Below, piece after piece: positions 3,956-21,935 of a stretch of DNA of 64,000 nt. The position numbers and the translations under genes are program-made. Source of the DNA: Candidatus Xianfuyuplasma coldseepsis (GTDB taxonomy: Bacteria; Bacillota_I; Bacilli_A; Izemoplasmatales; Izemoplasmataceae); contig NZ_CP048914.1 in NCBI RefSeq assembly GCF_014023125.1, positions 708,698 to 772,697 on the forward strand, read 5' to 3'. Position 1 is the stretch's first letter. Every line of letters starts with the position of its first letter. The notes beneath the pieces were generated by a model. It saw only the letters and a list, made by a program, of their open reading frames with translations, ran no database searches and was not told the origin of the DNA.

Positions 3956-4073
3956 GAAATCACTCCCTACGATAATTCTAGCAAAATTCAATGCATATTT
4001 AAAGGTAATTAATCCGTGTGCTTTATATGAAAACAAAAAAAGAAGCAATAACTGGCATCTTTTATTTATATAA

Positions 4074-4150
4074 TGGTAGCGGTGACAGGATTTGAACTGT
4101 ACCAAAGATTTAGAGACCCAAAATGTAATACTTACTCTACCTCCACATAA
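4074..4150 (-). pseudogene. Degenerate tRNA-like remnant, roughly 75% identical to the 3' half of tRNA-Trp. Probably an old att scar.
   Basis: The reverse complement ends ...GGTACAGTTCAAATCCTGTCACCGCTACCA. This T-arm and 3' end resemble tRNA-Trp (GTACGGGTTCAAATCCTGTCACCCCTGCCA), but the acceptor stem cannot pair and the anticodon arm is degraded. Confidence 0.5.
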
Positions 4151-4183
4151 ATAAAGAAACATTCCACGAGGAGTATTTCAGAA

Positions 4184-4621
4184 TTATCCTTTAATATATT
4201 CAAAATCAATTACTACCTTAGATTTTGGCAAATAAGTGATTGATATCTCATCACTAACTTTAGGCATCTTATCTTTACATAGAATGTAGAACTTAATACC
4301 ATTAACAACAAAAACTAATGTATTGTGACCCCTTGTATCAAACCAAACAAAATCATAGACTTTAGAAACTTCTCCTTTGAGTACCTTAGTGTTTAAGTGC
4401 ATATCATCTATGAGTTTTAACCCTCTTATTAATCTTGGTATCATAATGATGTTTAACCCTATCATTATAAATCCACTAACTAAGACAAATGTTGTATCTA
4501 TAGCTTCAATAACATAACCAAGAGTGAAAAATAATGAGAGAATCATTGTTAAAATAATTGCCCCCAACGGCCTATAGAACAAGTCTTTCTTATAGTTTCT
4601 ATACTCTTTTAGTATATTCAT
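4184..4621 (-). CDS. Small membrane protein (2 TM helices plus a C-terminal soluble domain), unknown function
   Basis: 145 aa. Hydrophobic helices at about 20-40 and 45-65. No known motif. Confidence 0.45.
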   Translation of the reverse strand: MNILKEYRNYKKDLFYRPLGAIILTMILSLFFTLGYVIEAIDTTFVLVSGFIMIGLNIIMIPRLIRGLKLIDDMHLNTKVLKGEVSKVYDFVWFDTRGHNTLVFVVNGIKFYILCKDKMPKVSDEISITYLPKSKVVIDFEYIKG

Positions 4622-4733
4622 GCTACCCCTCCAATACTCAACATTATAGTAATTATATCACATCTAGAAATCTAATGTAAGACAGCAAATGCACAATGGT
4701 CTTATCGATATAATTGTGTACATCACAAACAAA

Positions 4734-4763
4734 AAGAAGCCTATCTTGGCTTCTTTACTTTAT
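4734..4763. terminator. Second copy of the AAGAAGCC...GGCTTCTT hairpin, A-run on the left and T-rich on the right. The likely native bidirectional terminator abutting the att site.
   Basis: An 8-bp stem with flanking AAAAA (4731-4735) and TTTACTTTATAT. It is identical in stem and 3' flank to the 3325-3355 hairpin. Confidence 0.5.
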
Positions 4764-4767
4764 ATAG

Positions 4768-4815
4768 TGGCAGGGGTGACAGGATTTGAACCCGTACTAA
4801 CGGTTTTGGAGTCCG
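4768..4815. repeat. attL: 48-bp direct repeat copying the 3' end of tRNA-Trp (47/48 identical to 21773-21820)
   Basis: TGGCAGGGGTGACAGGATTTGAACCCGTACTAACGGTTTTGGAG(T/A)CCG is present at both positions. Confidence 0.85.
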
Positions 4816-5207
4816 ATTATATGTTTTTTCAGCACTCCAATAAGCTAGTAAAGTTCATTACCTTACCCTATACAATAATTATACTAAAGAAAGCGGGTGA
4901 TAACAACATAGACGCACCACAAAAACAGGTCCACTCCCTGGCACGACTATTAAGGGGAGTATGAATTGCAACAAGAGTTCCAAAGTTAAAAGAAAGGATG
5001 TTGCAATCGGTGATCATGTCATAAACTGGCTACCACATTGCCTTCGGGAAAGGGTGGCACTAAACAATGTTAGGCTCTGTTCAAATACAGACTTCATAAG
5101 ACCTACAGCATAAGTTGATCACTTAAACATGATAGTTCGGTACTGCCGCACCTATAAAGAAATCACTATAGTAATAATAAACGAAATAAGAAGAAAAGGA
5201 GAAGGAA

Positions 5208-6290
5208 ATGAAAAAGACGACATCCTTCAATAAAGATTTGTTTAAAAAAAGTTTAGTTAATAGTTTAAGTAATTATAAAGAGGGTTCTAAACAACAAGTA
5301 GAGCGCACTCCTAAGTATTCTACTGGAATAATTCCTTTGGATGATTTACTTGAAGGTGGTTTCCCAATGGGAAGCATAGTTGGCTTTGGTTCAGAAGCCG
5401 GTGTAGGAAAAACAACCATACTTTTACAAGCTTGTGCAAACATTGTTAAGAAGTACAACAAGACTGTTTACTACATTGATGTTGAGAATGGAGCAAAACT
5501 AGACTTGATCTACAAAATGGAATACACAGATATGTTGTACCATCCTGAATCAAATCCAGAAGGCAGGTTTTATCTACTATCATTCAAAACTATACAAGAC
5601 ATTGTGAGTTTTATTAACCAGGCTGCGAAAGGTCAAGATACTGCCGTAATTGTAATTGATTCTGTAACACAAGTTGTGGATGAAGAATCCAAAGAGAAAG
5701 ATGATTTGGATGTATCTAATAAACAAAAGGGAAAAATCGCAACAATGTGGTCTAAAGCATCAAGAGCTTTGAACACTATTATCGGTGACTCTGACATTAG
5801 TCTAATCATGGTTCATCAAGCAAGACAAAAACTAAACGACTTCAACCCTAAAACCACTTCTGCTGGTGGGAATGCTCTAAAACATATCACCTCAGTTGAG
5901 TTATGGGCAAAAAAGGGGAAATACATAAACGAGAAATATGTAACAGTTGACAAGGCGTCAAACTCAATAGGTTTCAATGTTAAACTTCAGAGTTTGAAGT
6001 CTAGATGTGGAGATTCGGACTCTTCAAGAAATCTAGTACTTTTCAAGGGTAAAGGCGCTGTTAATGTTTTTGCTGTAAAGGAATGGCTTGAAGAGTATCA
6101 GTATTATGATAAAAAGAAAGAGGAATACATCCCGTACTTCACTAAAAACGACCCTTGGAAGACATACAACATTCCTCAGTTAAGTATCTACATTAAGGAG
6201 AGATCTTATACAAAAATTCTTGAGCAGCTAAACTACCATAGAGATGAACTTATTCCATATGTTATACAACAACTCGAATCAAATTGGTAG
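5208..6290 (+). CDS. RecA-superfamily (KaiC/RadA/DnaB-C-like) ATPase
   Basis: Walker A GFGSEAGVGKTT, followed by YYIDVE and Walker B-like VIVIDSV. Strong RBS AAAGGAGAAGG. Confidence 0.6.
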   Translation: MKKTTSFNKDLFKKSLVNSLSNYKEGSKQQVERTPKYSTGIIPLDDLLEGGFPMGSIVGFGSEAGVGKTTILLQACANIVKKYNKTVYYIDVENGAKLDLIYKMEYTDMLYHPESNPEGRFYLLSFKTIQDIVSFINQAAKGQDTAVIVIDSVTQVVDEESKEKDDLDVSNKQKGKIATMWSKASRALNTIIGDSDISLIMVHQARQKLNDFNPKTTSAGGNALKHITSVELWAKKGKYINEKYVTVDKASNSIGFNVKLQSLKSRCGDSDSSRNLVLFKGKGAVNVFAVKEWLEEYQYYDKKKEEYIPYFTKNDPWKTYNIPQLSIYIKERSYTKILEQLNYHRDELIPYVIQQLESNW

Positions 6291-6483
6291 ATAATGCCTC
6301 AATAACAACTAAAATACTTATTATCATTATGGGTTCTCACAAATAAACAATCAAAAACACTCCTATATCAATGTGATTTAGAAGTGTTTTTGTAATAAAA
6401 ATCCCAGTAGCTTTCTCAAGATTAGTAAAATTAACCTCTAATCCGTAATTGTGAGAGAGTCACAACTATATTGATTATAGATA

Positions 6484-6966
6484 CTATAAATCATCAATTA
6501 TTTGTTTTCTTTTAGTGTTGTATTCATCCTCAGTGATAATACCTTTGTCTCTTAAAGAAGTTAACTTTTCTAGTCGCTCAGTAACGTCAGTATCTTGCTT
6601 CTGAATTTTCGGTTTAAAGTGTTTGGATTTATCTATCCTACTAAATCTTGTGTTCATAGATTCAAGATATTTATCAATCCATCTAGGTGCTGATTGGAAT
6701 CCAACAGATCCATCCATTGAGTCAGCTTGAATATTAACTTTCGTTCCATCTTCAACTCGACTAAAAGTAATTCTTAACTTGGCAGGATTCAATGGAGGAA
6801 AGAATTTCATTGGGCACTTAATTACTATTGAACCAATTCCCCTATTGTTGCTAACTACCTTACCAATGTCGTTACCAGCATTTATGCATAAGTTAAATGC
6901 ATCATCAAATTCTAAAGGTAGGACCATTTCTCTAGTCCCCTTTTTAAACATTGTACCTACTAACAT
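6484..6966 (-). CDS. SHOCT-domain protein (uncharacterised N-domain plus a C-terminal SHOCT oligomerisation motif)
   Basis: The C-terminus LEKLTSLRDKGIITEDEYNTKRKQIIDDL matches the SHOCT pattern. RBS GGAGGTG. Confidence 0.5.
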   Translation of the reverse strand: MLVGTMFKKGTREMVLPLEFDDAFNLCINAGNDIGKVVSNNRGIGSIVIKCPMKFFPPLNPAKLRITFSRVEDGTKVNIQADSMDGSVGFQSAPRWIDKYLESMNTRFSRIDKSKHFKPKIQKQDTDVTERLEKLTSLRDKGIITEDEYNTKRKQIIDDL

Positions 6967-7135
6967 GTTACACCTCCATAATCCTATATTAAACCAGAAG
7001 TAATCATGTAATCAATAAAAACTGCTTACAAAAAGTCCCGCACAGTGTAATTTTTCATAAAAACTTGATCATTCTTCACCAAGAAAGACATTAAAGGGGG
7101 ATGTATTTTCCTTCCCAAACATACTAACTACAGAG

Positions 7136-7471
7136 TTAGACTTCGTTAGCTCCATCAATGTACTTGTCATAATCGATGTCTTTGGTTTTATCAAGACTGA
7201 TAAAAGTAACCTTATCAGCTACAACTGTTAAGTCTTTTACGATGATCTCTAAGTGTGCCTTAACTCCGATCATGCTTCCAACCTCGATATGTTCTTTAAT
7301 AGCATTTGATAAATGCCTAGATAGTCTTACATTAATCTCATCAGTGTGGTTTTCTGTTTCGTTTACATTAGTAACCAACAACGAGATTAATAACTCTTCA
7401 GGATTTCCAGCACTAGTAACAAAGTCATATATACCAGTAACCTTACCTACCAAAATGACTTGATTCAACAT
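7136..7471 (-). CDS. SSB-like OB-fold protein (short)
   Basis: The N-terminus MLNQVILVGKVTG... resembles the SSB start (MxNxVxLxGRL). The start was set at the ATG with an AAAGGAG RBS. The track ORF begins at an upstream TTG. Confidence 0.45.
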   Translation of the reverse strand: MLNQVILVGKVTGIYDFVTSAGNPEELLISLLVTNVNETENHTDEINVRLSRHLSNAIKEHIEVGSMIGVKAHLEIIVKDLTVVADKVTFISLDKTKDIDYDKYIDGANEV

Positions 7472-7559
7472 GGAAATCAACTCCTTTCAACTATAGTTGA
7501 TGTATTAAGTATAACCGGTTAAGCGCCTAAATGCAGCCCTAAAATAGAAAAAGATGATA

Positions 7560-8234
7560 CTATTGAACTGTATCATCTGTATTCTCTGTATTTGACTTCT
7601 TAGGTGATTTTATTTTCTTGATTGTCACTTTCACTATGTTTTGTAGAACCAGAAAATCTTGTTTGACATCTGTCTTTATTACATCTAGAGTTAAGTATCC
7701 TTTACGAACCAGTACTATTGTTACTACACCACTACCTGTTATCGAAATCCAAAAGAATGATAGGAAGATATAATGAGAGCCAAGTAAATCCCATCTAGTA
7801 ACTTCAATGAATGAAGCATAATGATCGTTGGTATAAAATAACTGCTCACTTGAGAAAACAAATCGCTCAGCACCAACATCATCTGTTGTGGCATTGATAT
7901 ATGCTTCAGTATATGAATATCCGTCTGGTAGTAAAACTGGATCTCTAGTATTGTCGTATACAGCATAAACTGTTACATCGTATTCCCCAGGAGCAACTCC
8001 TTGTGACTTAGGCACGTAATTGCTAGGCAATTCATCATACTCTAGTATATACATTGCGACATGATCATAATCAGTATATGTTTTATAACGTCTAGCATTC
8101 ACATCTGTACTCATTGACATAATTAACAGAAAAAGTACCACAGGAAGGAAAATGTATCTTATCCTTCTTCTAAATGACTCTTGTTCTAAACTTAAAAGAA
8201 ACTTGTCTATACTATCTCTAATCTTCTGATTCAT
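7560..8234 (-). CDS. Membrane protein: N-terminal TM, a roughly 120-aa extracytoplasmic domain, and a C-terminal TM plus Lys-rich tail
   Basis: 224 aa. Hydrophobic segments IFLPVVLFLLIMSMS and IFLSFFWISITGSGVVTIVLV. Its start overlaps the upstream gene by 17 nt. Confidence 0.5.
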   Translation of the reverse strand: MNQKIRDSIDKFLLSLEQESFRRRIRYIFLPVVLFLLIMSMSTDVNARRYKTYTDYDHVAMYILEYDELPSNYVPKSQGVAPGEYDVTVYAVYDNTRDPVLLPDGYSYTEAYINATTDDVGAERFVFSSEQLFYTNDHYASFIEVTRWDLLGSHYIFLSFFWISITGSGVVTIVLVRKGYLTLDVIKTDVKQDFLVLQNIVKVTIKKIKSPKKSNTENTDDTVQ

Positions 8235-9420
8235 CCACTTTATCCATAAGGAACTTTACAGCAGATGTAACTGAGTTCAAATTGAATCTATGATTACTAT
8301 CATATGCATTTGGGATACTGAACACTGCTCCAGCATCAAGTAGTACTTTAGCAATAGCAAGTCCATCTTCAAAATTCACTTCTTCTAAGGCTAGATCTAG
8401 AGATTTCTTATCAACTATGTTGATCAATGCTTTGACAGCCATCAAGTCGTTTGCTTTTACTGCATCAATGATTCCATTGGACATCTGATGTTTGTTAAGA
8501 TTCATATTAGATACTCTATCTTGAACGTATGCTCGATCATTAATTTTCAAGAGATTCTCAACAGTCTTTAGATCATAGTTATCATATAGGAACTTAGCAC
8601 ACTCTGTAGCCTCATAATTAATCGCAAAGTCAAACATGTCCTTGTTCACATTATATTTGCTTCTATCGAGGAAGTACTTAAGAATATGTACTACATCTTT
8701 CTCTATTGCAACCTGAACTAGTTTAGGGACACCCCTGTCTCCCATTCTCACTAATCTTAATTCGGGAATAAGTTTTAATGTCTCGTCATTGGTACAAGCT
8801 AGAACGGCAGAAACGTATTCCTTCATATTCTCTGAGAGGTTTGCATACATGGGTAAAATTTTCTTACCTATTCTTAGCGAACCGCTTCTCTCTGATAATC
8901 TAGGTATCTCTAATTTACCATGATGATAACTAACAACATTGCCTTCTTCATCTTTTATCGGAGTACGGAAACTCGACTGTAGTAATTTCAAATCGTTGTT
9001 CTTAATAAGAAATGCAACAAATCGAGGATTGTTATTCAGTGACTCAATGATAAGTTGTTTAGAAAAGAGAAATTTGAATTTCTCTAAATCGTTACTCTCA
9101 ATACAATAGTCTAATAATGTCTTACCATTACTATCAGGCTGTTCAGGAGCCAAATCTGGATTGATTTTATCAATGTCTTGGTTATAAAACTTGCTTAACA
9201 TTGTTTCTCGCTCTGAACCAGCATATAGGATGTCATCCACTTTTACATCTAGAAACTCTGCAATCATCATTAGGTTCGAGATCTCAAATGAACTCTTACC
9301 ACTTAAATTCTGAGATACTGCTTGTTTGGATATACCAAGATAATCAGCCAAATTCTCTTGTGTATGTCCCTTTAATCTGAGTTGCTCTTTGATAAATTTT
9401 CCAATTTCAACTGTGTTCAT
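8218..9420 (-). CDS. XRE-family HTH protein with a large alpha-helical (possibly ankyrin-like) C-terminal domain
   Basis: The HTH is GHTQENLADYLGISKQAVSQNLSGKSSFEISNLMMIAEFL. Ankyrin-like segments include GLAIAKVLLDAGAVF. The start was set at ATG 9420 (MNTVEIGKF), 7 nt after AGGAGG. The track ORF starts further upstream. Confidence 0.6.
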   Translation of the reverse strand: MNTVEIGKFIKEQLRLKGHTQENLADYLGISKQAVSQNLSGKSSFEISNLMMIAEFLDVKVDDILYAGSERETMLSKFYNQDIDKINPDLAPEQPDSNGKTLLDYCIESNDLEKFKFLFSKQLIIESLNNNPRFVAFLIKNNDLKLLQSSFRTPIKDEEGNVVSYHHGKLEIPRLSERSGSLRIGKKILPMYANLSENMKEYVSAVLACTNDETLKLIPELRLVRMGDRGVPKLVQVAIEKDVVHILKYFLDRSKYNVNKDMFDFAINYEATECAKFLYDNYDLKTVENLLKINDRAYVQDRVSNMNLNKHQMSNGIIDAVKANDLMAVKALINIVDKKSLDLALEEVNFEDGLAIAKVLLDAGAVFSIPNAYDSNHRFNLNSVTSAVKFLMDKVDESED

Positions 9421-9445
9421 TTTGATTCCTCCTTTTGATAACTTC

Positions 9446-9474
9446 ATTATAGTCAAGTTGTGATTTATTTGTAA
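9446..9474 (-). promoter_or_regulatory. Promoter (TTACAA-17-TATAAT, minus strand) for the HTH/membrane gene pair
   Basis: The -10 is 9446-9451 and the -35 is 9469-9474, both read on the minus strand, about 20 nt upstream of the RBS. Confidence 0.45.
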
Positions 9475-9668
9475 GCAACTAATAGTTAATTTCTCCTTTA
9501 CAATATAAAAATGATACATAGTAAAGTAAACCACTCATTAACTTTCTTTTACTTAAGCGGTATTAAGACTATGTATCAAACTATTTCGGAAGTAAATTAC
9601 CCCTTATTTTTATTTTATCATTTTACAAAATAAAGTATAACAAAAATTTTCAAATGTCTCTTCTTGTT

Positions 9669-10766
9669 TTAGAATGGCAGATCATCTTCCGACACTTCAA
9701 TATAAACAGGTTTCTTTTCATTAATACGTACTTCAAGTAGTTTGTTTTGAAAAGAATGTATTAATGCATCCAATAATTCTTCATTTTTGTCTTTCAATGC
9801 TTCGTATATTTTATTTAAAACTTTGATATCTTCAACAGGAATTCCAACATTGCATTTAACTTTTATATCTAAGGAATCAAAAAGATCTTCAGCTCTAACA
9901 GAATGTTCAAACCAATTCCTTTTTATCAATATGTTTAGATTGTCTAAAATCTCTTTAATTGATGCAATACTAAATTCATTATAGACATTAAATCGGGGTT
10001 CAAAATGAACATCTCCATTCCAAATTTCTAATCTATCATAAAATATACTTACCATACTATCTAAAGCCTGTTGTCTCAACTCATCATAATTAATCTCTGG
10101 TTTAGTTTTATCTAAAGGAGATTCTTCGATGGAATCTTTGTTTTCTTCATCGTAATCAATGGTTATTTGAAGTTCTTTCTCTAGCTTATTAAGCTGCCCT
10201 CCATCTATTATTGACATTGAAAAATTAGTTTCATCTAGAAACTCAGTTTTCAAAGCATTAGAGTTGTTTAGAAATCCTTTGTCGGATGTTATAAAGTATA
10301 GGTTTTGATATTTCTTCATTTCAAAGTACTCTAGAAGACTAATCCATATCATACTATCTTTAAAACCTTTGTCGCTTGCATTCTCATTGCTGTTGAAAGG
10401 TGGTAACTTATATCGATCTCTTTCAAGTAACTTGTCAAGCATCTTTTTCTTATTGTAGCTGATAACTTTATCCTTAAAATGATGATCAATATATTTATCA
10501 AGTGACTTCTCATAAAGTATTATCTTGTCTTCAAGATTTACTTTATTATTTATCTCAACATACTCTACTAACTCTTCTTTTAGTACCTCTATTTTTTCAT
10601 AAGATTTTTTTATGTCTCTTGCTTTAATGTTCTTAATCTCTTTAACAACAATTTCAGGGACAAAAACATCATATTGTTTTTTACACTCTACTATAAATCT
10701 TGTTATGTAATTGTCCTTTCGTTGTTCTATTAGAAAATTTGTATCTATTACAATAGCATTTTCCAT
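9669..10766 (-). CDS. PIN-like nuclease domain protein (N-terminal PIN-like, roughly 190-aa uncharacterised C-domain)
   Basis: An N-terminal IVIDTNFLI acidic motif, and a later FITSDKGF motif typical of the last PIN strand. 365 aa. Confidence 0.5.
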   Translation of the reverse strand: MENAIVIDTNFLIEQRKDNYITRFIVECKKQYDVFVPEIVVKEIKNIKARDIKKSYEKIEVLKEELVEYVEINNKVNLEDKIILYEKSLDKYIDHHFKDKVISYNKKKMLDKLLERDRYKLPPFNSNENASDKGFKDSMIWISLLEYFEMKKYQNLYFITSDKGFLNNSNALKTEFLDETNFSMSIIDGGQLNKLEKELQITIDYDEENKDSIEESPLDKTKPEINYDELRQQALDSMVSIFYDRLEIWNGDVHFEPRFNVYNEFSIASIKEILDNLNILIKRNWFEHSVRAEDLFDSLDIKVKCNVGIPVEDIKVLNKIYEALKDKNEELLDALIHSFQNKLLEVRINEKKPVYIEVSEDDLPF

Positions 10767-10865
10767 TATATCTCTCCATCCAAGCCTAATTTAAGTATTT
10801 TCATAAACCAGTTCAATCGTTTCACAATGTACTAGTCTTATGAATTTATACTACCTAGCCTTCTT

Positions 10866-11327
10866 CTATTTTCTTTTCACCCATTTTGCCTCACCCTTTT
10901 TTTTAAAGAGTGTAATAAAATATGATTCAACTGCCGGTGCCATCCAATGTGGTTCTATCAAAAAAGATTTATAATATACAAACCTACTAGGAATTGGCAA
11001 AGTCATTATATAGTCATAGATTTTCTTTATGCAAGATTTTGTTTTTGCTTGAGTGTTTTGCACAATGTGAGACTTGATACGTGTGTTAATACCCTTTTTA
11101 TTTTCCTTCTTACCAATATATTGACACCTACCAAGGTTATCAAATATAAAATAGATGTTATTAGAAGAAGGTTCCAAGACCTTTGTATCTTTTCGTTTCA
11201 ATACTTGGTATCTTTTTGGTTTGTTGTAAACCATTCTTTTGAATTTAGATGGATTTTGAATGTCGTTTTCGATTGTGTCGAGAACGTTCTTTATACATGC
11301 AAAACCACTGAAATTGTAATCGGCCAT
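10866..11327 (-). CDS. Small GIY-YIG-like nuclease domain protein
   Basis: NIYFIFDNLGRCQYIGKKENKKGINTRIKSH matches the GIY-x9-YIG-x8-R-x3-H layout. A downstream ESYFI glutamate is present. RBS GAGGT. Confidence 0.5.
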   Translation of the reverse strand: MADYNFSGFACIKNVLDTIENDIQNPSKFKRMVYNKPKRYQVLKRKDTKVLEPSSNNIYFIFDNLGRCQYIGKKENKKGINTRIKSHIVQNTQAKTKSCIKKIYDYIMTLPIPSRFVYYKSFLIEPHWMAPAVESYFITLFKKKGEAKWVKRK

Positions 11328-11346
11328 AAACTACCTCTTCTTAATA

Positions 11347-12162
11347 CTAAAAATCTGCACTTATATGTGAAAGAGAAATTATTTTGGTTAGCAACAAATC
11401 AATAGACTCCTCTTTATACTTTCTTTCTTTCGACCAGTCTCTAATCTTCTTTATGAGAATTTCAATATCGCTTTTATTATCAACAATAATATATTCAATA
11501 TCTTTAATATCAAGTTTTAACTTGAAGGCACTTTTTAAGTCATCACGAATATCTTTGTTGAACAGGTTCATCTGTTCTTCCCAAATGAACAAACTTTTGC
11601 CTGTCGTATCTTCAAACACATTCTTATTCGGTACGAATCTCCATTCATTTTCTAGATAGTACCTAGTAACCTTATCATCTTTCCTGATTATCATTGGTTT
11701 TGAATAAGTTTTCATCAATCTTAGGTAGTTTAGAGCATTTGTTTGTAGATATAAAGAATCTCCATCTAGTACCTCTTTAGACATTTGATATTCTCTTGAA
11801 TCTGTCACTTTTGCCACCAATAATCTCATCTCAGTGTATATAGGCATCTCTGAGCTATAATACCAAAGTGGGGTCAACCCATTATGCAAACCCCAAGATT
11901 GCTTCATTCCAATGGCAATTCCACCATATTTTGTTTTGTGTTCTTTTATGCTTGTTAATGGGATATCACAAAAGCATACCATTGGGAAGGTACTCGATCC
12001 TAGTTCATCTATTAATTCAGAATCAAATAATTCTTCCTCAAACCCAAATAAATCATCAATTTGTTCTTTATTATAGAAGGGTATAAATCCATGTTCTAAA
12101 ATACTTATAATAGTGTCTATATCTCTTGTAAAATGAAACAATGAGTTAGTTTTATAAGCCAT
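11347..12162 (-). CDS. AbiGi-like abortive-infection family protein (tentative). Its start overlaps the hsdR stop.
   Basis: The N-terminus [29 protein letters not shown] resembles the AbiGi family N-terminus as I recall it. ATG 12162 is preferred because it has a GAGGT RBS. It overlaps the hsdR 3' end by about 11 nt. Confidence 0.4.
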
Positions 12163-15100: not shown

Positions 15101-15304
15101 GACTTGTCTTGGAACTGTATCATTAATACGAAGAAGCGCTTCTCGTAAGCGCTCAATTAATATTACTTCTTCATATGAATCCCTTTCAGGATATTCCCCG
15201 TCAAATGAGATATTAGGACCAAACTCAATATTGTATCCTAATTCTTCTAGCCACTGTAAAGCAGCTTCCTCTACATCCGACTCATAAAATACTTTTACTC
15301 CCAT
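12152..15304 (-). CDS. hsdR: Type I restriction enzyme R subunit (HsdR)
   Basis: About 1050 aa with a DEAH box ([10 protein letters not shown]) and SF2 helicase motifs. Operon position after hsdM/hsdS. ATG at 15304 with a GAGGGG RBS. The track start at 15319 is a TTG. Confidence 0.9.
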
Positions 15305-15308
15305 TTCA

Positions 15309-16634
15309 TCACCCCTCAATAGGTACTTCTATCTCTCCACTCATTAGTTTTGGTAATAGTGTATCTCTAGTTATGGTTAACACTTCATTCTCTTTACCAT
15401 TCTGCTGTATTTGTTCATAAGTATCCAAATAAAAACTAGCTAGTCTGTCTATCCATTCTTTGTTTGGGATTACAATCTTGTATTCATTCAATATAAACTT
15501 CAAATCAAAATTCTTTATTCCAGTAGTCCCATTCTCATAATTGAAGAAAACATTATTGTTATACAAGTATTCAAAAGTAAGACTTATATAAGGTGATAAA
15601 TTTATGTCTTTTGGCTCAATAGCTCTACAAAAATTAGTGCATATAACCTTATCATTATATCTATGTATAAATTCTTTTGATATCAAAGCTGTTCTACCAG
15701 TCGACTGTTTAGGACTTCCCCCCGATATCTCAACTACTATATCTCCAGCTTTCAATTTCTTCTTGAGAAAGTTCTTATTAAGTATATATCTGGTTGGGCA
15801 TTTTCCTTTATCCCCAACTTTGATTGAGTTTATATCTGCACCTCTAATACACACAACTTCAGAAGTATAGTTACCAGTTATTGCTTCTTTACCCCAGTCA
15901 CCTGCAATCGTTGTAGCTACAAGATCTCCTAGACTCCCGACTTCCCATCCTCTAGGAATTAATCCCAAGTCACTTTCTATCATTTCTCCACCACTAGATT
16001 TATATGGTTCTCCATCTTCATTAGGATACTCAAAATCAACAAACCATTGTTTATATAATGCTTGTGCCATTTCTTCAAGGTTCTTATTGATTTTGTTGTT
16101 AAGTTCTATTTTGTCATCAAGTGATGATAAGATGTTTGATATTGTTTTTTGTTCCGCTAAAGGTGGTAAAACAACATTAATATTTTTAATGTTTTTTATA
16201 GGTAATTTTGCTTGTACCGCCCCTACAGTTCCCATTCTAATTTCTTGAATACCATTGGGTGAGTTCAAGTAATAATAAAGAAATCTATAGTCAATTTTCT
16301 CAGAATGATTTGTTAATTTAACGCAATTTTCTGTCAAACTTGCATTATCCAATGTTTTACCTACTATACCCGTTAAACCTATAGTCCCAACTATGGATAA
16401 TAGTACATCTTTATAATTAGTAATGTACCGTGAAATATTACTAAATGTCTCCTCAATAATATATTGAATCCCATCAAATTTCTCAAGTTTTGTAATATTA
16501 TTCAAATCTCGCACACGAATATATGGATGTGTAGTTTTATAATCTACTAAAGAATGTCCTTTAGGTAATCTCTTCCCGCCCTTTATCTCAACTATTTCTT
16601 CTAATTTTACATTTCTCCAATCATCATAACTCAT
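15309..16634 (-). CDS. hsdS: Type I R-M specificity subunit (HsdS), two TRDs
   Basis: Conserved central [14 protein letters not shown] and C-terminal LLPKLMSGE motifs. Overlaps hsdM and abuts hsdR. Confidence 0.9.
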
Positions 16635-18111
16635 AACCTATTCCCCTTAAGTTCTCCTTGATTTTTTCCTCAAGAGATTTAGATTCTTCAAATAGGTCTG
16701 ATAATTCTGAAGTAAGTCTATCCATTTTCTCTTCAAATGGAATACCATCATCTTCCTCTTCTTCAATACCTACATAACGTCCAGGAGTTAAAACATAGTC
16801 ATGTAACTTAATTTCTTCAATTGTAGATGATTTGCAGAATCCATCAACATCTTCATAATTTTCTTCATTTTTCCAATTATGGTAAGTAGTGTAGATTTGT
16901 TCTATCTCTTCATCTTTTAATTCTCTATGTTTTCGCGTTTCCATATATCCCATTTTACGAGCATCTATAAATAATACTTTATCTTTTCTACCGTTCTTAT
17001 TTTTGGAAACAAACCATAAGGATACAGGAATAGCCACATCATAGAATAGTTGTGAAGGCATAGCTACAATACAGTCTACTAATCCTTCTTCTAGGATTGA
17101 TTTACGGATATCGTACTCCTCACTTCTTGATGTTGATAAAGAACCATTAGCTAAAACAAATCCAGCAGTACCTCTTGGACTTAATTTACTTATCATATGT
17201 GAAATCCATGCATAGTTCGCATTTGTTTTTGGTGGAACTCCCCATTTCCATCTAACATCATCTAATAAATGAGGTTGTCCCCAGTCTTTAATATTAAAAG
17301 GTGGATTGGCTAATATATAATCTACTTTCAATGTTTTATGTTGATCGTTAGTAAATGTATCTCCATCTCTTTCACCAAGATTTGCATCAAGTCCTCTGAT
17401 TGCAAGATTCATTTTTGCTAGTCTCCATGTAGTAGCTACATATTCTTGTCCGTAAATTGAGATATCACCAAGTCTACCTTGATGTTCTTCAACAAACTTT
17501 GCAGATTGCACAAACATACCACCACTACCACAACAAGGGTCATATACTCTACCTTTATAAGGTTCAATCATATTTACTAATAATTTAACAATACTGGGTG
17601 GTGTATAAAACTCACCTTCCGTACTACCAAACTTCTTAAGGAAGTACTCATATACTCTACCTAACACATCTTTAGCTCTTGCTTCCTTACTTCCTACGTT
17701 AAAAGAGAATAGGTCTACCAACTCACCTAATCGTGTCTTATCTAGAGCTGGTCTTGCATAGTTCTTAGGTAAGACATTTTTTAATGGAACATTCTCACGC
17801 TCAATAAGGATCATTGCATTATCGATTACTTGTCCGATAGTAGGTTGTTTCGCTTGTGACTTAATATAATCCCATCTAGCTTCTTTCGGTACGAAGAATA
17901 CATTCTCAGACTCGTATGCATCTCGATCTTCTTCCATACCAGGATAGACTTGCTTCACTTCGTTATATCGTTCTTCAAAGGAATCAGAGATGTACTTCAA
18001 AAAAACAAGCCCCAATATAACGTGTTTATATTCAGAGCTTTCAATATTACCCCTTAACTTATCTGCCATTTCCCACAGTTTATTCTCGAATCCTAAATTT
18101 ACTTTTGCCAT
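16624..18111 (-). CDS. hsdM: Type I R-M N6-adenine DNA methyltransferase (HsdM)
   Basis: NPPFN catalytic motif and the HsdM N-terminal domain. 495 aa. Confidence 0.9.
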   Translation of the reverse strand: MAKVNLGFENKLWEMADKLRGNIESSEYKHVILGLVFLKYISDSFEERYNEVKQVYPGMEEDRDAYESENVFFVPKEARWDYIKSQAKQPTIGQVIDNAMILIERENVPLKNVLPKNYARPALDKTRLGELVDLFSFNVGSKEARAKDVLGRVYEYFLKKFGSTEGEFYTPPSIVKLLVNMIEPYKGRVYDPCCGSGGMFVQSAKFVEEHQGRLGDISIYGQEYVATTWRLAKMNLAIRGLDANLGERDGDTFTNDQHKTLKVDYILANPPFNIKDWGQPHLLDDVRWKWGVPPKTNANYAWISHMISKLSPRGTAGFVLANGSLSTSRSEEYDIRKSILEEGLVDCIVAMPSQLFYDVAIPVSLWFVSKNKNGRKDKVLFIDARKMGYMETRKHRELKDEEIEQIYTTYHNWKNEENYEDVDGFCKSSTIEEIKLHDYVLTPGRYVGIEEEEDDGIPFEEKMDRLTSELSDLFEESKSLEEKIKENLRGIGYEL

Positions 18112-18128
18112 AATTAGTACCTTCCTCT

Positions 18129-18488
18129 CTATTTATATACTTCCCTTAAAGATTTTCCTTTGCTATTTACTATTTCATCCCATGCTTTTGTAGTTATGTA
18201 CCCTAAAAAAATACATGCAGCTCTATTGGGTGATGAAAAAACCTCATCAGTTTGTAATTCGTAATAGTTTTGATCATACTCTTGAAGAACCCCTTTGTTT
18301 AGTAAATCTCTTCTTGAGCGTTCAATCCAATTACAGTCAGTCCATTTTTTAGTAATTATAGGTTCTCTTTTCATCAAGGAGCCTTTATGTACTATAACTT
18401 CATTATCTTTACCTTTGGTTTCTCCCGTACCTATATAACTTATAGTAGCAATTAACATACCTTTGTTATTTTTTAGATAAAAATCCAC
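18129..18488 (-). CDS. Small protein leading the hsd operon, DUF4357-like (tentative)
   Basis: 119 aa. The C-terminal VFSSPNRAACIFLGYITTKAWDEI resembles, from memory, the DUF4357 motif seen upstream of hsdM genes. GTG start with a GGTGGTGAG RBS. Confidence 0.4.
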   Translation of the reverse strand: MDFYLKNNKGMLIATISYIGTGETKGKDNEVIVHKGSLMKREPIITKKWTDCNWIERSRRDLLNKGVLQEYDQNYYELQTDEVFSSPNRAACIFLGYITTKAWDEIVNSKGKSLREVYK

Positions 18489-18528
18489 TTAACTCACCAC
18501 CATCTTATTCAGGTTCTTTTCAATTAAA

Positions 18529-18557
18529 ATTATATCAAAAAATGAACGTAAGTTAAA
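18529..18557 (-). promoter_or_regulatory. Putative promoter of the hsd operon (extended -10 TGaTATAAT on the minus strand, weak -35 TTTAAC)
   Basis: Reverse complement ...TTTAAC-17-TATAAT, about 40 nt upstream of GTG 18488. Confidence 0.35.
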
Positions 18558-18706
18558 TAGCTAGTATAAATGAATAATTGCAAGTCTGCAGAAACGTCAT
18601 TGTTAAGCCATCTATCCATTAAATCCCTATCGAAACCTTCCGTATACCAAGATCAGACTGGATTACATATATACTATAGAGTCTGAAAGCTATCTCAAAT
18701 ACGGCA

Positions 18707-18735
18707 TGGACAAACCTGATCCTGCCGCGTATAAT
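18707..18735 (+). promoter_or_regulatory. Promoter TGGACA-17-TATAAT directed toward the serine recombinase gene (about 130-nt leader)
   Basis: -35 at 18707-18712 and -10 at 18730-18735. Confidence 0.45.
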
Positions 18736-18869
18736 GTGGTACACAAATGAAATAAACCACTAATTTTTGCCCTCTCAATTATACTGAGCATTAATTAGTG
18801 AATTAATTCTAATTTGTTGTTGAGTGCACTATAAAAGGATAAATGCACACCATAAAGGAGGGTATCTAA

Positions 18870-19430
18870 ATGAGAATAGGATATATGAGAGTATCAACAG
18901 TCGCTCAAAACTTAGATACACAGAAAGCGGCTCTGGAATCATATGGAGTAGAAAGAATCTTTGAAGAGAAAGCGTCTGGAAGAAACATTGAAAGACCAGT
19001 CCTTAAGGAGTTGCTTAAGTTCATCAGATCAGGGGACACGCTTGTAATATATGATTTATCTAGACTGGGTAGGACAGTACATCAAGTTGTAAAATTATTA
19101 GATGACTTCATAAAAAGAAACATTGGTTTCGTATCGCTTAAGGAATCACTGGACATAACCACACCGATGGGTAAAGCAATGGCACACATAATTGCAGTGT
19201 TTAATCAAATGCAAGTGGATGTTCAAAATGAAAAGACTAGAGAAGGACTACTAATCGCAAAAGCAAATGGTAAAAAACTTGGGAGAAAAGCCATTACTCA
19301 AGATAAGATTCTAATGATACAAGCATTATGTAAAGAAGGGTATTCGAATCAAGAAGTTGCAGATAAATTAGGAGTCTCAAGAAGAACTGTAATTAACTAC
19401 AAGAAGGGCTCTAAACAGATAAAAAACTAA
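18870..19430 (+). CDS. Small serine recombinase (resolvase/invertase family)
   Basis: MRIGYMRVSTVAQNLDTQ N-terminal catalytic motif (S10), and a C-terminal HTH (GYSNQEVADKLGVSRRTV). 186 aa. Confidence 0.85.
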   Translation: MRIGYMRVSTVAQNLDTQKAALESYGVERIFEEKASGRNIERPVLKELLKFIRSGDTLVIYDLSRLGRTVHQVVKLLDDFIKRNIGFVSLKESLDITTPMGKAMAHIIAVFNQMQVDVQNEKTREGLLIAKANGKKLGRKAITQDKILMIQALCKEGYSNQEVADKLGVSRRTVINYKKGSKQIKN

Positions 19431-19446
19431 TGTTGAGGTGTAAACT

Positions 19447-19716
19447 ATGGACGAAGATAAAAGAGCATTTCAGGCTAGTGAAAATCAGCTGCTATATAAA
19501 AAAACTTTAAGTTCAGACAACTTCATTATTGATCAAATAAAACAAGCATATCTATTAAGTCTTCCATATCTACCTATGGATTCCTTAGAAGAGTCTGAGA
19601 AGATCGCTTCATTGTTCGATTTATTGAAGAGGAACATGGCTTATAAGAAGGGGTTAATGGATCAGACTGTTAGTCTTATTACTGAGGATGCATTTAATGA
19701 ATGGTTCAAAACTTAA
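19447..19716 (+). CDS. Hypothetical small protein (89 aa) co-transcribed with the recombinase
   Basis: An RBS GAGGTG 6 nt upstream. No motif. Confidence 0.4.
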   Translation: MDEDKRAFQASENQLLYKKTLSSDNFIIDQIKQAYLLSLPYLPMDSLEESEKIASLFDLLKRNMAYKKGLMDQTVSLITEDAFNEWFKT

Positions 19717-19749
19717 AACAATGCTTAAAACTAAAAAAGATGGGCACTA

Positions 19750-20196
19750 CTACATCCATCTTTCTTTTAGTTTGTGTGAAGCTGACAAAATATTAGCAAC
19801 CTTTAGCATCAATGCCGATTTGATACTAATCAAATCTGCTGACAGTTTATTTAGTTTCTCAGTATCTGCTTCAGAGATACTGTTTTTATTTACTGAATCT
19901 TCCTCCAACCTTTTATGGTGTTCCACAAAATCATATGTTTTCATATCAAATAACACGCCTAACTCAGTAATTGTGAGGTCGCTAAAATCACTGTCAGGAA
20001 TGTCTTTAATGAAAAAGGCTTGAACGGGATAATGGTAGAAATCTGCTAGCCTTTCCAAAATATCAAAAGGAATATTCCTATCACCTAATTCATATCTACT
20101 GTAGTTTTGTATCCTGATATCTAAGTGTTGAGCTATATCCTTTTGCCTGAATCCTTTTTGTTTCCTTAGTGTTCTAAGATTGTTGCATATGTTCAT
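19750..20196 (-). CDS. XRE-family HTH transcriptional regulator (repressor-like)
   Basis: HTH_3 motif LRKQKGFRQKDIAQHLDIRIQNYSRYELGDRNIPFDILERLADFY. Confidence 0.8.
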   Translation of the reverse strand: MNICNNLRTLRKQKGFRQKDIAQHLDIRIQNYSRYELGDRNIPFDILERLADFYHYPVQAFFIKDIPDSDFSDLTITELGVLFDMKTYDFVEHHKRLEEDSVNKNSISEADTEKLNKLSADLISIKSALMLKVANILSASHKLKERWM

Positions 20197-20229
20197 ATAA
20201 TCTCACCTCATCTAAATTATAACATCCTA

Positions 20230-20305
20230 TCACCATTTTGGTGAATATTTCTTCAAACCTATACACCCCTGAATTGAAAAACTAATTTATTCACCGTTTT
20301 GGTGA
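20230..20305. promoter_or_regulatory. Two copies of the 15-bp palindrome TCACC-N5-GGTGA (20230-20244 and 20291-20305), centres 61 bp apart. Candidate operators of the XRE repressor in the XRE/int divergent region.
   Basis: TCACCATTTTGGTGA and TCACCGTTTTGGTGA are both perfect 5-N5-5 inverted repeats. Confidence 0.45.
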
Positions 20306-20450
20306 TTTTATTGGAAAGAGCACATGAAATGTCCTGTATTTAAACCGCATAATAAAGCCATCTTGTTAAAATGGGCTTTTTTGGCTCAAAAAAAACACAC
20401 CTCTAGTATATACGTAGGTGTATAGTGCTTGACACATCCAACAATAAAAA

Positions 20451-21683
20451 ATGAAGGAGTTGATAAAAGTGAAAATGAATCAAGCCCTAGATAATTTTTT
20501 AAAGCTGAAAGAGGCAACGTTTAAACCTGAAACTGTAAGATACTATAAAGGAAAGATACCTACGATTAAGAAGTTCATGGGTAATCTAGATGTTGAAGAA
20601 GTAACAGATGTTGACATTGCAGACTTTCTACTCAAACTCAAAGAAAGAAACCCGGAAATCTCCAAACGAACACAAAGGAAATACGTTGACATCATCATGA
20701 GTATAGTCAACAAAGGAAAAAAAGAAGCTGATAAACTTAAATTTACCAGACCAAAACCTGTTTTGAAAAAGATTAAAAAGGTATCAGATGAAAACATAGC
20801 TCTGATACTTAATTACTATGTATCAAATCTTAGCTATGCAAATAATCACAAGTACTACTTGTTAATCAATCTTCTTCTTGATACAGGTGTCCGCATTAAT
20901 GAACTAGTAAACATTAAGATGAAGAACATCAATCTATCTATGAATAGCATCCATCTAGATGTGACCAAGACAGATTCAGATCGAACTGTGTATTTTAGTG
21001 ATAGGACAAGACAAATACTTCTAAGCTACATTAACAAACACATTGATGGTCACGAATATCTCTTCTACAGCCAGGATGGTAAGGGTCATATTCATAGAGA
21101 CTCTGTATACAAATCTATAGCGAGATTGCAAAAAAGACTAAACATAAAACAATCAATAAGTCCACATAAGTTTCGTCATGCTTTTGCAACAAAGCTTCTT
21201 AGAAAAACAGGTGACATCGAAGTGGTAAGACAATTGCTTGGGCATAAGCATCTTGAAACCACACAAATATATCTAGACTATGAAGACGAGTACTTGAAGA
21301 AGGTCTACGATAAAGCAATGAATAACAATGGTATGTATAATGCCAAAAATCAAAATAAGGAGGATCAAGATTTGAGCAAAGCTAAAGTACTTCAAGATCA
21401 TTATCAAGTGAAATGTGATGTGTGTAACACAGACATAAACACTCCAAAAGATGACATACAGATATATTGTCCAAAATGTGGATCAGTTATCACAGTGTTA
21501 CACGATAAAGACAATCATGCTTATGCAATTGAAACCGGAGTTCTTGTTGCATCTTCATTTCTCCCTGGAGAACCTAAGAAATATGTTATACACAAAGATG
21601 GTAATCGAGGTAACAATAACGTTGCAAATCTACAATGGAGCGATCACCCCGACTATCCAAGCCAAGATAAACAAATCAACTAG
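20451..21683 (+). CDS. int: Tyrosine site-specific integrase with a C-terminal Zn-ribbon plus HNH_3-like extension
   Basis: R (TGVRINEL), HKFRHAF, and LGHKHLETTQIYLDY catalytic motifs. The C-terminal roughly 120 aa contain CDVC...CPKC and HKDGNRGNNNVANLQW. The true start is possibly GTG 20469 or ATG 20475, after AAGGAG. Confidence 0.85.
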   Translation: MKELIKVKMNQALDNFLKLKEATFKPETVRYYKGKIPTIKKFMGNLDVEEVTDVDIADFLLKLKERNPEISKRTQRKYVDIIMSIVNKGKKEADKLKFTRPKPVLKKIKKVSDENIALILNYYVSNLSYANNHKYYLLINLLLDTGVRINELVNIKMKNINLSMNSIHLDVTKTDSDRTVYFSDRTRQILLSYINKHIDGHEYLFYSQDGKGHIHRDSVYKSIARLQKRLNIKQSISPHKFRHAFATKLLRKTGDIEVVRQLLGHKHLETTQIYLDYEDEYLKKVYDKAMNNNGMYNAKNQNKEDQDLSKAKVLQDHYQVKCDVCNTDINTPKDDIQIYCPKCGSVITVLHDKDNHAYAIETGVLVASSFLPGEPKKYVIHKDGNRGNNNVANLQWSDHPDYPSQDKQIN

Positions 21684-21772
21684 GTAATACATAAAAATGG
21701 TATGTACTAGCGGTCATTTCAAGACTAGAGCAAATAAAAAAGCAAACCTAATGGCTTGCCTAAGCTCTTAAG

Positions 21773-21847
21773 TGGCAGGGGTGACAGGATTTGAACCCGT
21801 ACTAACGGTTTTGGAGACCGCTGTGCTACCATTGACACCACACCCCT
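21773..21847 (-). tRNA. tRNA-Trp: tRNA-Trp (CCA anticodon), the integration target
   Basis: Reverse complement AGGGGTGTGGTGTCAATGGTAGCACAGCGGTCTCCAAAACCGTTAGTACGGGTTCAAATCCTGTCACCCCTGCCA. The acceptor stem pairs, and the anticodon loop is CTCCAAA. Confidence 0.9.
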
Positions 21848-21851
21848 AAGA

Positions 21852-21935
21852 TGGTGGGAGGGGACGGATTTGAACCGCCGAACCCGAGGGAACAGAGTTA
21901 CAGTCTGTCGCGTTTAACCACTTCGCTACCCGCCC
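21852..21935 (-). tRNA. tRNA-Tyr: tRNA-Tyr (GTA anticodon, long variable arm)
   Basis: Reverse complement GGGCGGGTAGCGAAGTGGTTAAACGCGACAGACTGTAACTCTG...TTCAAATCCGTCCCCTCCCACCA, with anticodon loop CTGTAAC. Confidence 0.85.

Follow-up and report, generated by a model that had tools for sequence, protein, structure and literature searches.

A 64,000-nucleotide (nt) stretch of the chromosome of Candidatus Xianfuyuplasma coldseepsis, a member of the Izemoplasmatales, was analysed here as a whole and is referred to as the window. Between positions 4816 and 21770 it contains what is, with high probability, a single genomic island integrated site-specifically at the gene for tRNA-Trp. A tRNA-integrated defence island as such is a familiar and ordinary kind of element. 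The more interesting result, in our opinion, is the backbone of the island family to which it belongs, which includes a structured element that also occurs in phages, is supported by covariation and is absent from Rfam. In the sequences compared here, this backbone consists of a tyrosine integrase, an invertase-type serine recombinase, an open reading frame (ORF) of 89 amino acids (aa), an SSB-like protein, the structured RNA-like element and a UvsX/RecA-like recombinase, often accompanied by an XRE repressor. The backbone is conserved and the payload, which is mostly anti-phage, exchangeable.

Integration at the tRNA-Trp gene

ARAGORN places the genes for tRNA-Trp(cca) at 21773-21847 and for tRNA-Tyr at 21852-21935, both on the minus strand. 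By alignment, a 50-nt direct repeat with a single mismatch (T at 4812 versus A at 21817) links 4766-4815 to 21771-21820, and the longest exact block returned by blastn is 46 nt (4766-4811 and 21771-21816). The repeat begins with the first base of the anticodon loop (tRNA position 32), continues to the 3' end (position 75) and extends 2 nt beyond it. An earlier note on this DNA had described a 48-bp repeat with one mismatch (4768-4815 and 21773-21820); the alignment reproduces its coordinates and mismatch count and extends it by the 2 bases past the tRNA. A 45-nt core of the repeat (4767-4811 and 21772-21816) has only two matches in the window when up to 3 mismatches are allowed, and none in 100 shuffles. 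The copy at 4766-4815, attL, is the displaced 3' part of tRNA-Trp; attR (21771-21820) lies within the intact, reconstituted tRNA-Trp gene on the minus strand, the two together covering 21771-21847. Weaker similarity of the flanks of these attachment (att) sites reaches into the adjoining terminator hairpins (4731-4815 versus 21737-21820, 82.6% over 86 nt). According to the terminator scan, a hairpin that can act on both strands lies at 4733-4756, just outside attL on the side of the chromosome or of older islands, and is similar to the terminator behind the empty tRNA-Trp of a related contig, L019. A second, island-borne intrinsic terminator at 21740-21761 (minus strand) now ends the tRNA-Tyr/tRNA-Trp transcript, and the flank around it (21690-21770) is kept in the related contigs L010, L014 and L021.

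The DNA between the repeats also differs from its surroundings in composition. Its GC content is 33.6%, versus 37.6% in the rest of the window, and its tetranucleotide distance to the rest of the window is 0.294, versus 0.152 +/- 0.02 outside, with a drop at both repeat boundaries. The check proposed in the earlier note, of GC and k-mer deviation between the repeats, thus came out positive for both measures. The same note had contrasted the island with flanking housekeeping DNA, which stands for the foreign composition inside and needs correction for the left flank, since the genes there lie between degenerate att copies and are probably older accreted DNA themselves.

Two such degenerate copies were recovered. 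The inner one, at 4037-4121, is a third copy of the terminator and the tRNA-Trp 3' fragment, 80.5% identical to attL over 77 nt (blastn E 2e-12; nhmmer 5e-8) and reported independently by a repeat search; we regard it as an old att remnant. The outermost, at 3321-3360 between the MDR oxidoreductase gene and a TehB-like gene, consists of a terminator hairpin and 'ctttactttatat' with no tRNA fragment, is 87% identical to 4731-4768 over 39 nt (E 2e-6) and was likewise returned by the repeat search. Between the degenerate copy at 4037-4121 and attL, a unit of ~650 bp resembles a remnant of a cis-mobilizable element (CIME) and holds a single gene, an ORF of 145 aa (4184-4621, minus strand) with no known family in Pfam, NCBIfam or PHROGs. 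This ORF and the gene of the TehB-like methyltransferase each sit in a unit of ~700 bp bounded by att-like remnants, and this part of the left flank was probably accreted at an earlier time. The series of att-like copies on the left probably reflects tandem accretion, in which successive insertions were followed by decay of the inner elements, and it looks as such a history would be expected to look. It should be noted that the 252-aa TehB-like ORF (3404-4162) is probably over-extended at its 5' end, where its first ~69 codons cross the degenerate att copy; its homologues match residues 66-249 only, and the real start is therefore probably M70, at ~3955.

We compared occupancy of the site in contigs of related Izemoplasmatales, which were retrieved by looking up exact proteins and by scanning metagenomes once with the CopA-type ATPase of the flank and which all belong to species other than that of the window. 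The right-hand context ArsR-CopA-tRNA-Tyr-tRNA-Trp is common to these contigs. In L010/L011 the site is occupied by a sister island with an integrase (68% identity), a serine recombinase (63%), an SSB-like protein (36%), an XRE repressor (39%) and a different Type I restriction-modification (R-M) system. L014 carries a 9.7-kb element between the two copies of a 44-bp repeat, which likewise starts at tRNA position 32; besides small ORFs, the element has a 48% identical integrase and a rolling-circle initiator of the REP_ORF2-G2P type. In L020 an integrase of 38% identity beside the tRNA is followed by Ig-like surface proteins, and L021 combines a 36% identical integrase with an endonuclease and methylase pair and three att copies (at the tRNA, 20887-20936 and 21613-21668). 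The att repeat of L021, like that of L014, begins at the same tRNA position as in the window. L019 (CopA 76% identical) has neither integrase nor repeat: CopA is followed by two ORFs on the other strand, tRNA-Tyr, tRNA-Trp, the terminator, two small ORFs and an MDR oxidoreductase 48% identical to that of the window, which makes it the closest to the predicted empty site.

The site is therefore empty, occupied by a sister element or otherwise occupied in relatives, as expected of a site-specific integration hotspot, and on the sequences compared the tRNA-Trp site is a hotspot where one integrase clade brings very different cargo. This pattern and the existence of an empty-type site show the repeat to be an att site and not a piece of a tRNA gene that was duplicated, and the repeat, the adjacent intact integrase, the foreign composition and the variable occupancy together uphold the earlier reading of a ~17-kb defence-type island in the 3' end of tRNA-Trp. 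The empty site proposed there as a check was found in part, as the empty-type site of another species; none was found in a conspecific genome. As a separate observation, positions 1638-11498 of L014, from a related metagenome-assembled genome (MAG), look like an integrated single-stranded DNA phage of the plectrovirus or inovirus type, bounded by the 44-bp att repeat.

The family comparison also bears on the left end of the island. In the window the RecA-like and SSB-like genes lie at the opposite island end from the serine recombinase and integrase. In L016 the genes for the RecA-like and SSB-like proteins, the serine recombinase and the integrase are contiguous and adjoin another Type I R-M system and an AIPR gene, and L097/L098 carry the RecA-like protein (71% identity), the SSB-like protein (40%), the 89-aa ORF (40%) and the serine recombinase (82%). 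That backbone genes from both island ends recur together in L016 and L097/L098 supports position 4816 as a true island end and the 17 kb as one element. In L098 an attL-like tRNA-Trp fragment (46-132) lies beside the RecA-like end, next to the RNA element and the RecA-like gene, which further supports 4816 as the true end.

Taken together, these features suggest the following mechanism. The Xer-like tyrosine integrase would recombine an island attP, a copy of tRNA-Trp from the anticodon loop to the 3' end with its terminator, with the chromosomal tRNA-Trp gene. The island would thereby supply a new 3' part of the tRNA and the terminator at 21740-21761, the displaced original 3' part would be left as attL (4766-4815) and the original terminator would stay behind at 4733-4756, with earlier insertions presumably having left the degenerate, att-bounded remnants further leftward by tandem accretion. 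The XRE repressor may bind two palindromes (20230 and 20291) between its own gene and the integrase gene (int), forming a lysogeny-type switch for int. Once excised as a circle, the island would have int, attP, the RNA element and then the RecA-like gene in succession on the plus strand with no predicted plus-strand terminator between them, so that excision could place the recombination module under the int promoter; as long as the island is integrated, the hairpin at 4733-4756, being bidirectional, would insulate this module from the left. On this model the island would still be able to move.

A structured RNA-like element common to islands and phages

At the left end of the island, a gene-free stretch of 392 nt (4816-5207) holds a conserved structured RNA-like element of ~240 nt (4928-5166, plus strand), which was delimited by a covariance model and covariation and ends 41 nt upstream of the RecA-like gene. 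The covariance model, R1, has nine helices defined from seven sequences. In the window the helices are P1 (4933-4939/4954-4960), P2 (4965-4972/5000-5007), the long-range P3 (5009-5016/5116-5123), P4 (5026-5028/5106-5108), P5 (5029-5034/5053-5058), P6 (5071-5074/5102-5105 and 5076-5080/5087-5091) and P7 (5138-5140/5146-5148). The sequences used in building R1 score 238.7 bits in the window (4928-5166), 234 bits in L097/L098 (602-839/690-927) and 208 bits in L099/L100 (9631-9874/437-680), and, in phage contigs, 182 bits in L104 (257-474, minus strand), 141 bits in L105 (2838-3035), 130 bits in L103/L106 (11362-11549/2609-2796) and 109 bits in L101/L102 (11207-11380/4798-4971). Outside the building set, R1 detects the element in the phage contig L111 (1625-1860, minus strand, 114 bits), in L010/L011 (4075-4291/4029-4245, 72.6 bits), where there is also a second copy (3707-3930/3661-3884, 24.1 bits), and in L016 (6303-6472, 20.7 bits). 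Two of the scans with DNA patterns gave false positives only (L107-L110).

Several lines of evidence support the structure. Standard pairs fill 93.4% of the pair cells, versus 71% in column shuffles and ~38% with slid partners, in an alignment of 10 distinct sequences that was itself fitted to the model; changes on both sides occur in 37 of the 46 pairs, and none of 500 shuffles reached the observed values. RNAalifold, run de novo on the same alignment, recovered P1, P2 and P3, with 19 of its 22 pairs compensated. The invariant G-U pairs fit the plus strand only, which is the strand of the RecA-like gene. The element is also well conserved relative to its neighbour: it is 84% identical to L097/L098 at the nucleotide level, versus 71% protein identity for the RecA-like gene, and it is detectable in L099/L100 (nhmmer 4e-16), where the RecA-like protein is 42% identical. 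The folding energy of the single sequence is no better than that of shuffles (z = -0.4 on the plus strand and -1.0 on the minus strand). Since the folding energy is unremarkable and the alignment had been fitted to the model, it is covariation, together with the matches outside the building set, that carries the case. Rfam 15 gave no match at its gathering threshold, and nothing relevant at E <= 10 for the region or at E <= 1 for the island and phage copies. On this comparison, the element appears to be a structured RNA-like motif that is well supported by covariation, common to islands and phages and absent from Rfam 15.

The genes around the element differ between islands and phages. It lies upstream of the RecA-like gene in the window, L098 (~40 nt), L099 and L016 (~140 nt), and the two copies in L010 have the XRE operators on one side and a convergent SSB-like gene on the other. 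In the five phage contigs L101, L103, L104, L105 and L111, the element is found just downstream of the RecA-like gene and is directly followed by tandem simple repeats, which are long and nearly perfect and have a unit that differs from phage to phage: (ACT)33 in L105 (3025-3124), (TAA)n in L103 (~11550-11620), CAACAATAA-type in L101 (~11380-11540), CCTAAA-type in L104 (below 257) and (GATAAA)n in L111 (below 1625). An AT-rich tract follows the repeats in four contigs, all but L104, whose retrieved sequence stops within the repeats. A DnaB-type helicase gene lies downstream in L101, L103 and L105, the phage contigs with enough retrieved sequence, and L101 and L103 also encode DNA polymerase A, thymidylate synthase and a single-stranded DNA-binding protein, with a primase-type Toprim domain in L103. 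The repeats and AT-rich tract of the phages could be an origin, contingency repeats or something else.

A role purely as a 5' leader would fit the window, L098, L099 and L016; it was rejected for its misfit with L010, where the next gene is convergent, and with the phages, in which a long tract of repeats comes in between. All three arrangements would be compatible with a stand-alone RNA or with an element of the origin or priming type. The nearest functional analogy lies in origins that are primed by a transcript or built on a structured RNA, such as the T4 R-loop origins oriF and oriG and RNA II of ColE1. The phage copies recall these in that they lie between recombinase and helicase genes and are followed by tandem repeats and, in four contigs, an AT-rich tract; they have no sequence or structural homology to them, however, and the island copies lie directly upstream of the RecA-like gene without the repeats and AT-rich tract.

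We speculate that this element of ~170-245 nt is an undescribed class of structured RNA or single-stranded DNA in the replication and recombination module of a group of Izemoplasmatales phages, acting for instance as an origin or priming RNA or as a recombinase-loading signal, and that the island family is a minimalist satellite that carries a copy of it, is amplified or mobilised by such phages and delivers defence systems to its host. We put this forward as a decidedly tentative proposal, which in its full form is doubtful. As a further observation, L099 8900-20474 (GCA_021736205.1, a Candidatus Izimaplasma sp. MAG) carries the RNA element and the RecA-like gene beside a 799-aa protein of no assigned function, HNH_2 and PDDEXK proteins and two DNA methyltransferases, with no integrase or tRNA within 10 kb, and may be another kind of defence island using the same module.

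Backbone and cargo genes

The earlier note had placed a tyrosine integrase beside the tRNA, followed by an XRE repressor and a serine recombinase, and Pfam, PADLOC, NCBIfam and PHROGs confirm this order. The Xer-like integrase (20451-21683, plus strand; start at 20475 according to NCBI; Pfam Phage_integrase 4e-35, NCBIfam XerA-type 2e-51) ends 90 nt from the 3' end of the tRNA, and its catalytic R, H-x-x-R, H and Y are present in the translation (DTGVRINE, HKFRHAF and LLGH...TTQIYLD). It carries a C-terminal tail of ~120 aa (21324-21683, residues ~292-410) that contains a zinc ribbon of the form CxxC...CxxC and a full HNH_3 motif, HKDGNRGNNNVANLQW, scoring just under the cutoff for Pfam HNH_3 (2e-5) and matching a PHROG HNH endonuclease at 8e-8 (residues 365-401). 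This tail is unique, as all other integrase-type homologues checked end at ~285 aa, where it begins, and to judge from the translation it would have arisen by capture of a small HNH gene in frame or else form a genuine fusion of recombinase and nuclease. It is like one repeat unit of a multi-HNH_3/NUMOD4 homing-endonuclease-like protein (P0076).

The XRE/CI-type repressor (19750-20196, minus strand) matches Pfam HTH_3 (1.4e-10) and PHROG repressor families and has a 39% identical homologue in L010. The control region between it and the divergent int gene contains two palindromic candidate operators, TCACC-N5-GGTGA, found by sequence search at 20230-20244 and 20291-20305, the first of which is overlapped by a promoter-like site for the XRE gene; a similar pair of palindromes lies upstream of the XRE gene in L010. 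A sigma-70 promoter scan found no more sites than in shuffled sequence, and the promoter of the RNA element or of the RecA-like gene therefore cannot be placed by such a scan.

The small serine recombinase (18870-19430, plus strand) is of the DNA-invertase/resolvase type (Pfam Resolvase 8e-40; PHROG 125 DNA invertase 1e-62), and copies of 58-83% identity lie beside related integrases or RecA-like genes in L010, L016 and L097/L098. A repeat search revealed no invertible segment for it in the island. We rejected the possibility that it drives phase variation of hsdS as a shufflon: hsdS is present only once, hix-like sites were not found, and instead of convincing inverted repeats a single weak one of 29 nt, 83% complementary, links hsdS to the recombinase gene. 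Directly 3' of the recombinase is the 89-aa ORF (19447-19716, plus strand), which has a 40% identical ORF at the same position in L097/L098 and no family match in Pfam or PHROGs, and for which the homologue search returned the ORF itself only; an ORF of 111 aa that overlaps it (19688-20023) is probably spurious. Compared with the window, the pair formed by the recombinase and the 89-aa ORF is inverted relative to the RecA-like gene in L098. Upstream of the recombinase, a 380-nt stretch (18489-18869) is free of ORFs and, except for a 36-nt match to L016 6056-6091, shows no conservation in L010, L016 or L098.

At the other end of the island, the phage-type UvsX/RecA-like recombinase (5208-6290, plus strand; Pfam RecA 4e-19, PHROG 97 UvsX-like 7e-34, PDB RecA 2.5e-13) has homologues in the islands L097/L098 (71%) and L016 (41%) and in the phage replication modules of L101, L103, L104, L105 and L111 (37-45%). 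The short SSB-like OB-fold protein (7136-7480, minus strand; Pfam SSB 8e-6, at the cutoff; PDB SSB E 0.04) has homologues of 34-40% identity in L010, L016 and L097/L098, and these begin with 'MLNQV', so that its start is probably at 7471. Beside the SSB-like gene of L098 we noted an 81-nt tRNA-Phe(gaa) gene (3633-3713; L097 3545-3625), a length that is unusual for tRNA-Phe.

As to the cargo, the earlier note had listed a Type I R-M system and a string of small uncharacterised genes. The R-M system is indeed there and complete, whereas most of the small genes can be assigned: AbiGi, PIN_12, HTH-ankyrin, barnase-like RNase, SSB-like, SHOCT and UvsX/RecA-like. The R-M operon (12152-18111, minus strand) consists of full-length hsdM (16624-18111), hsdS (15309-16634), with two target-recognition stretches, and hsdR (12152-15319), which together have the Pfam domains N6_Mtase (1.8e-108), HsdM_N, Methylase_S, HSDR_N, SWI2_SNF2 and T1RH-like_C (3e-115). 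On the same strand follow an AbiGi-like abortive-infection protein (11347-12180; Pfam AbiGi 3e-26, PADLOC AbiGi 1e-43), a 153-aa ORF in the position of AbiGii (10866-11327), with a weak PADLOC match to UzuA (0.0019) and none in Pfam or PHROGs, and a 365-aa nuclease with a PIN_12 domain (9669-10766; Pfam 8.9e-21). Neither the 153-aa ORF nor the PIN_12 protein matched AbiGii in Pfam or PADLOC, leaving the AbiG pair incomplete.

Further along the minus strand, a protein with a Cro/CI-type HTH_3 domain and ankyrin repeats (8218-9534; Pfam HTH_3 1.5e-9, Ank_2 2.6e-6; PADLOC PDC-M69A 1.7e-12) is encoded by a gene that overlaps by 17 nt the gene for a 224-aa protein (7560-8234) with a barnase/binase-like RNase domain at residues 55-145 (PDB binase/barnase E 2e-8 to 1e-4), of which the HTH-ankyrin protein is possibly the regulator or immunity partner. 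The RNase domain is preceded by a signal or membrane segment at the N-terminus and followed by a membrane helix at the C-terminus, which weakens the case for a cytoplasmic toxin. Positions 7560-9534 could encode a surface nuclease, in an organism known for extracellular nucleic-acid degradation, or a toxin-immunity pair. The remaining minus-strand cargo comprises a 160-aa protein with a C-terminal SHOCT domain (6484-6966; Pfam 1e-8) and a truncated gene (18129-18488) that retains only the C-terminal ~100 residues of a ~300-aa protein of the DUF4357/PDC-S14 type (Pfam DUF4357 under cutoff; PADLOC PDC-S14 1e-11, profile positions 205-294 of 301). The payload of predicted Type I R-M, AbiGi, PIN and RNase proteins is consistent with anti-phage defence. 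Elsewhere in the window there are two more tRNA genes on the minus strand, for tRNA-Glu (43516-43592) and tRNA-Ser (44955-45045), and the 4-kb tetranucleotide windows over them give 0.147-0.173, at or slightly above the background of 0.152 +/- 0.02.

Alternative explanations and relation to known elements

A number of observations weigh against an integrated, still mobile island. We found no conspecific genome with an empty site, and a contig scan with the TehB-like flank protein gave only relatives of at most 55% identity, none with a tRNA nearby and thus no empty site. The left flank is otherwise present, in identical form, only in the Logan contigs L001 and L002, both of which break 30 nt into the repeat, as de Bruijn assembly does at any repeat, and which are therefore uninformative on the island. 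In L019 the tRNA-Trp sequence has diverged and synteny is only partial. The sister island of L010 occupies this site in a related organism and could have been inherited vertically instead of having integrated independently. Genes for an excisionase, a replication initiator, a relaxase or packaging were not recognised, and the truncated gene at 18129-18488, together with the unusual HNH tail of the integrase, may mean that the element is decaying. Near-identity searches of the island with megablast gave no match in the phage collection and only a 43-nt hsdR-like match, in Mycoplasmopsis plasmids, in the plasmid collection.

Decay is the essence of a reading in which the region is an immobile remnant of a degraded prophage, long resident in tRNA-Trp, whose structural genes were deleted. 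The presence of an integrase, a CI-like repressor, a recombinase of the DNA-invertase family, a UvsX-like recombinase and an SSB would agree with it, as would the one truncated gene and the sister island at the same site in a related organism, and no virion structural, terminase or lysis genes were found, PHROGs matches being limited to the integrase, repressor, invertase and UvsX-like recombinase. Yet the minimal backbone occurs in at least four distinct islands (window, L010/L011, L016 and L097/L098) with different cargo and gene order, which would be unexpected from independent decay, attL and attR differ at one base over 50 nt, and the integrase, R-M and recombinase genes are full length; we consider a prophage remnant quite improbable. 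Movement by conjugation, as an integrative mobilizable or conjugative element, could be argued by analogy: conjugative elements carry ssb genes in their leading region and have single-strand promoters or origins, which the SSB-like gene and the strand-specific structured element may resemble. Searches of all ORFs with Pfam, PADLOC, NCBIfam and PHROGs, however, detected no relaxase, coupling protein, type IV secretion component or oriT-like feature, and this explanation seems to us extremely unlikely. Another rival is a phage satellite, in which a phage-type recombination and origin-like module is combined with an integrase/repressor switch and depends on a helper of the type of L101, L103, L104, L105 or L111, with the cargo protecting the host against other phages. 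The RNA element and RecA-like gene were found in common only with five phage contigs carrying replication genes, and the layout of these phages, in which the element is followed by tandem repeats, an AT-rich stretch in all but L104 and helicase genes, is origin-like. The island resembles P4-like elements and phage-inducible chromosomal islands (PICIs) in its integrase and CI-like switch, compact size, defence cargo and modules in common with phages, a layout known from satellites. Unlike them, it lacks primase or replicase genes, capsid-size redirection and terminase genes: no replication initiator or primase and no gene for capsid remodelling, a small terminase or other hijacking of helper packaging was found with Pfam, PHROGs, PADLOC or NCBIfam. 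The module it has in common with phages is a recombinase and a structured RNA-like element rather than a replication initiator, its copies of the element come without the repeats and the AT-rich tract, the host has no known helper phage, and scans of viral collections with the RecA-like protein and the integrase core gave no close relative. We regard a satellite as possible, albeit on the unlikely side.

A further alternative concerns only the element at 4928-5166, which might not be an RNA: it could be a small protein-coding gene, or else act as double-stranded DNA, for instance as an array of operators or as arm sites of the integrase. It does lie beside attL, where arm-type sites are expected, and an ORF of 50 codons (4961-5113) overlaps it. 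The compensatory double changes and the plus-strand-only consistency of the G-U pairs, however, speak for a structure, the copies in L099 and in phages lie far away from att sites and integrases, and a 1-nt indel between the window and L098 breaks the frame of the 50-codon ORF. A non-RNA nature is accordingly very improbable, and we retain the reading of one site-specifically integrated island that carries a structured RNA-like element.

Islands in tRNA genes with tyrosine integrases reportedly include a type whose att site runs from the anticodon loop to the 3' end of the gene. The island resembles them in the integrase beside a reconstituted tRNA, the repeat that starts in the anticodon loop, the foreign composition, the anti-phage payload and the hotspot with variable cargo. 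It differs from typical examples in its short Xer-like integrase (a core of ~285 aa), which has no N-terminal arm-binding domain and bears the unique zinc-ribbon/HNH tail, in a backbone that adds the invertase-type serine recombinase, the SSB-like protein, the UvsX/RecA-like recombinase and the structured RNA-like element, and in its host, a bacterium of the Izemoplasmatales. Tandem accretion at att sites gives rise to CIMEs beside integrative and conjugative elements (ICEs) or integrative and mobilizable elements (IMEs) and to the serial islands at the ssrA gene of Dehalococcoides. The window is similar in having several direct att copies (21771-21820, 4766-4815, 4037-4121 and the flank-only copy at 3321-3360), with inner units devoid of a recombinase, as is L021 with its three copies; in contrast to those cases, each remnant unit measures only ~700 bp and holds a single gene, and decay of the outer copies is far advanced.

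The host is a deep-sea, wall-less bacterium of a little-studied lineage; the integrase of the window matches with 100% identity an NCBI protein of Candidatus Xianfuyuplasma coldseepsis, encoded on a 1.96-Mb contig. The description of the strain published in 2021 (PMC8397711) does not mention an island, a prophage, an integrase or a restriction system. The present family appears to be the first island family outlined for the Izemoplasmatales, as we found no earlier description. At the hotspot, one integrase clade carries defence islands, a rolling-circle Rep element and surface-protein genes, and accreted remnants are left behind. The strain is cultured and can be used for experiments, and transcriptomes of it exist, which makes the idea of an RNA motif directly testable. 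If it is true that the motif acts in replication, recombination or the interplay of satellite and helper, it would represent a new class of functional RNA.

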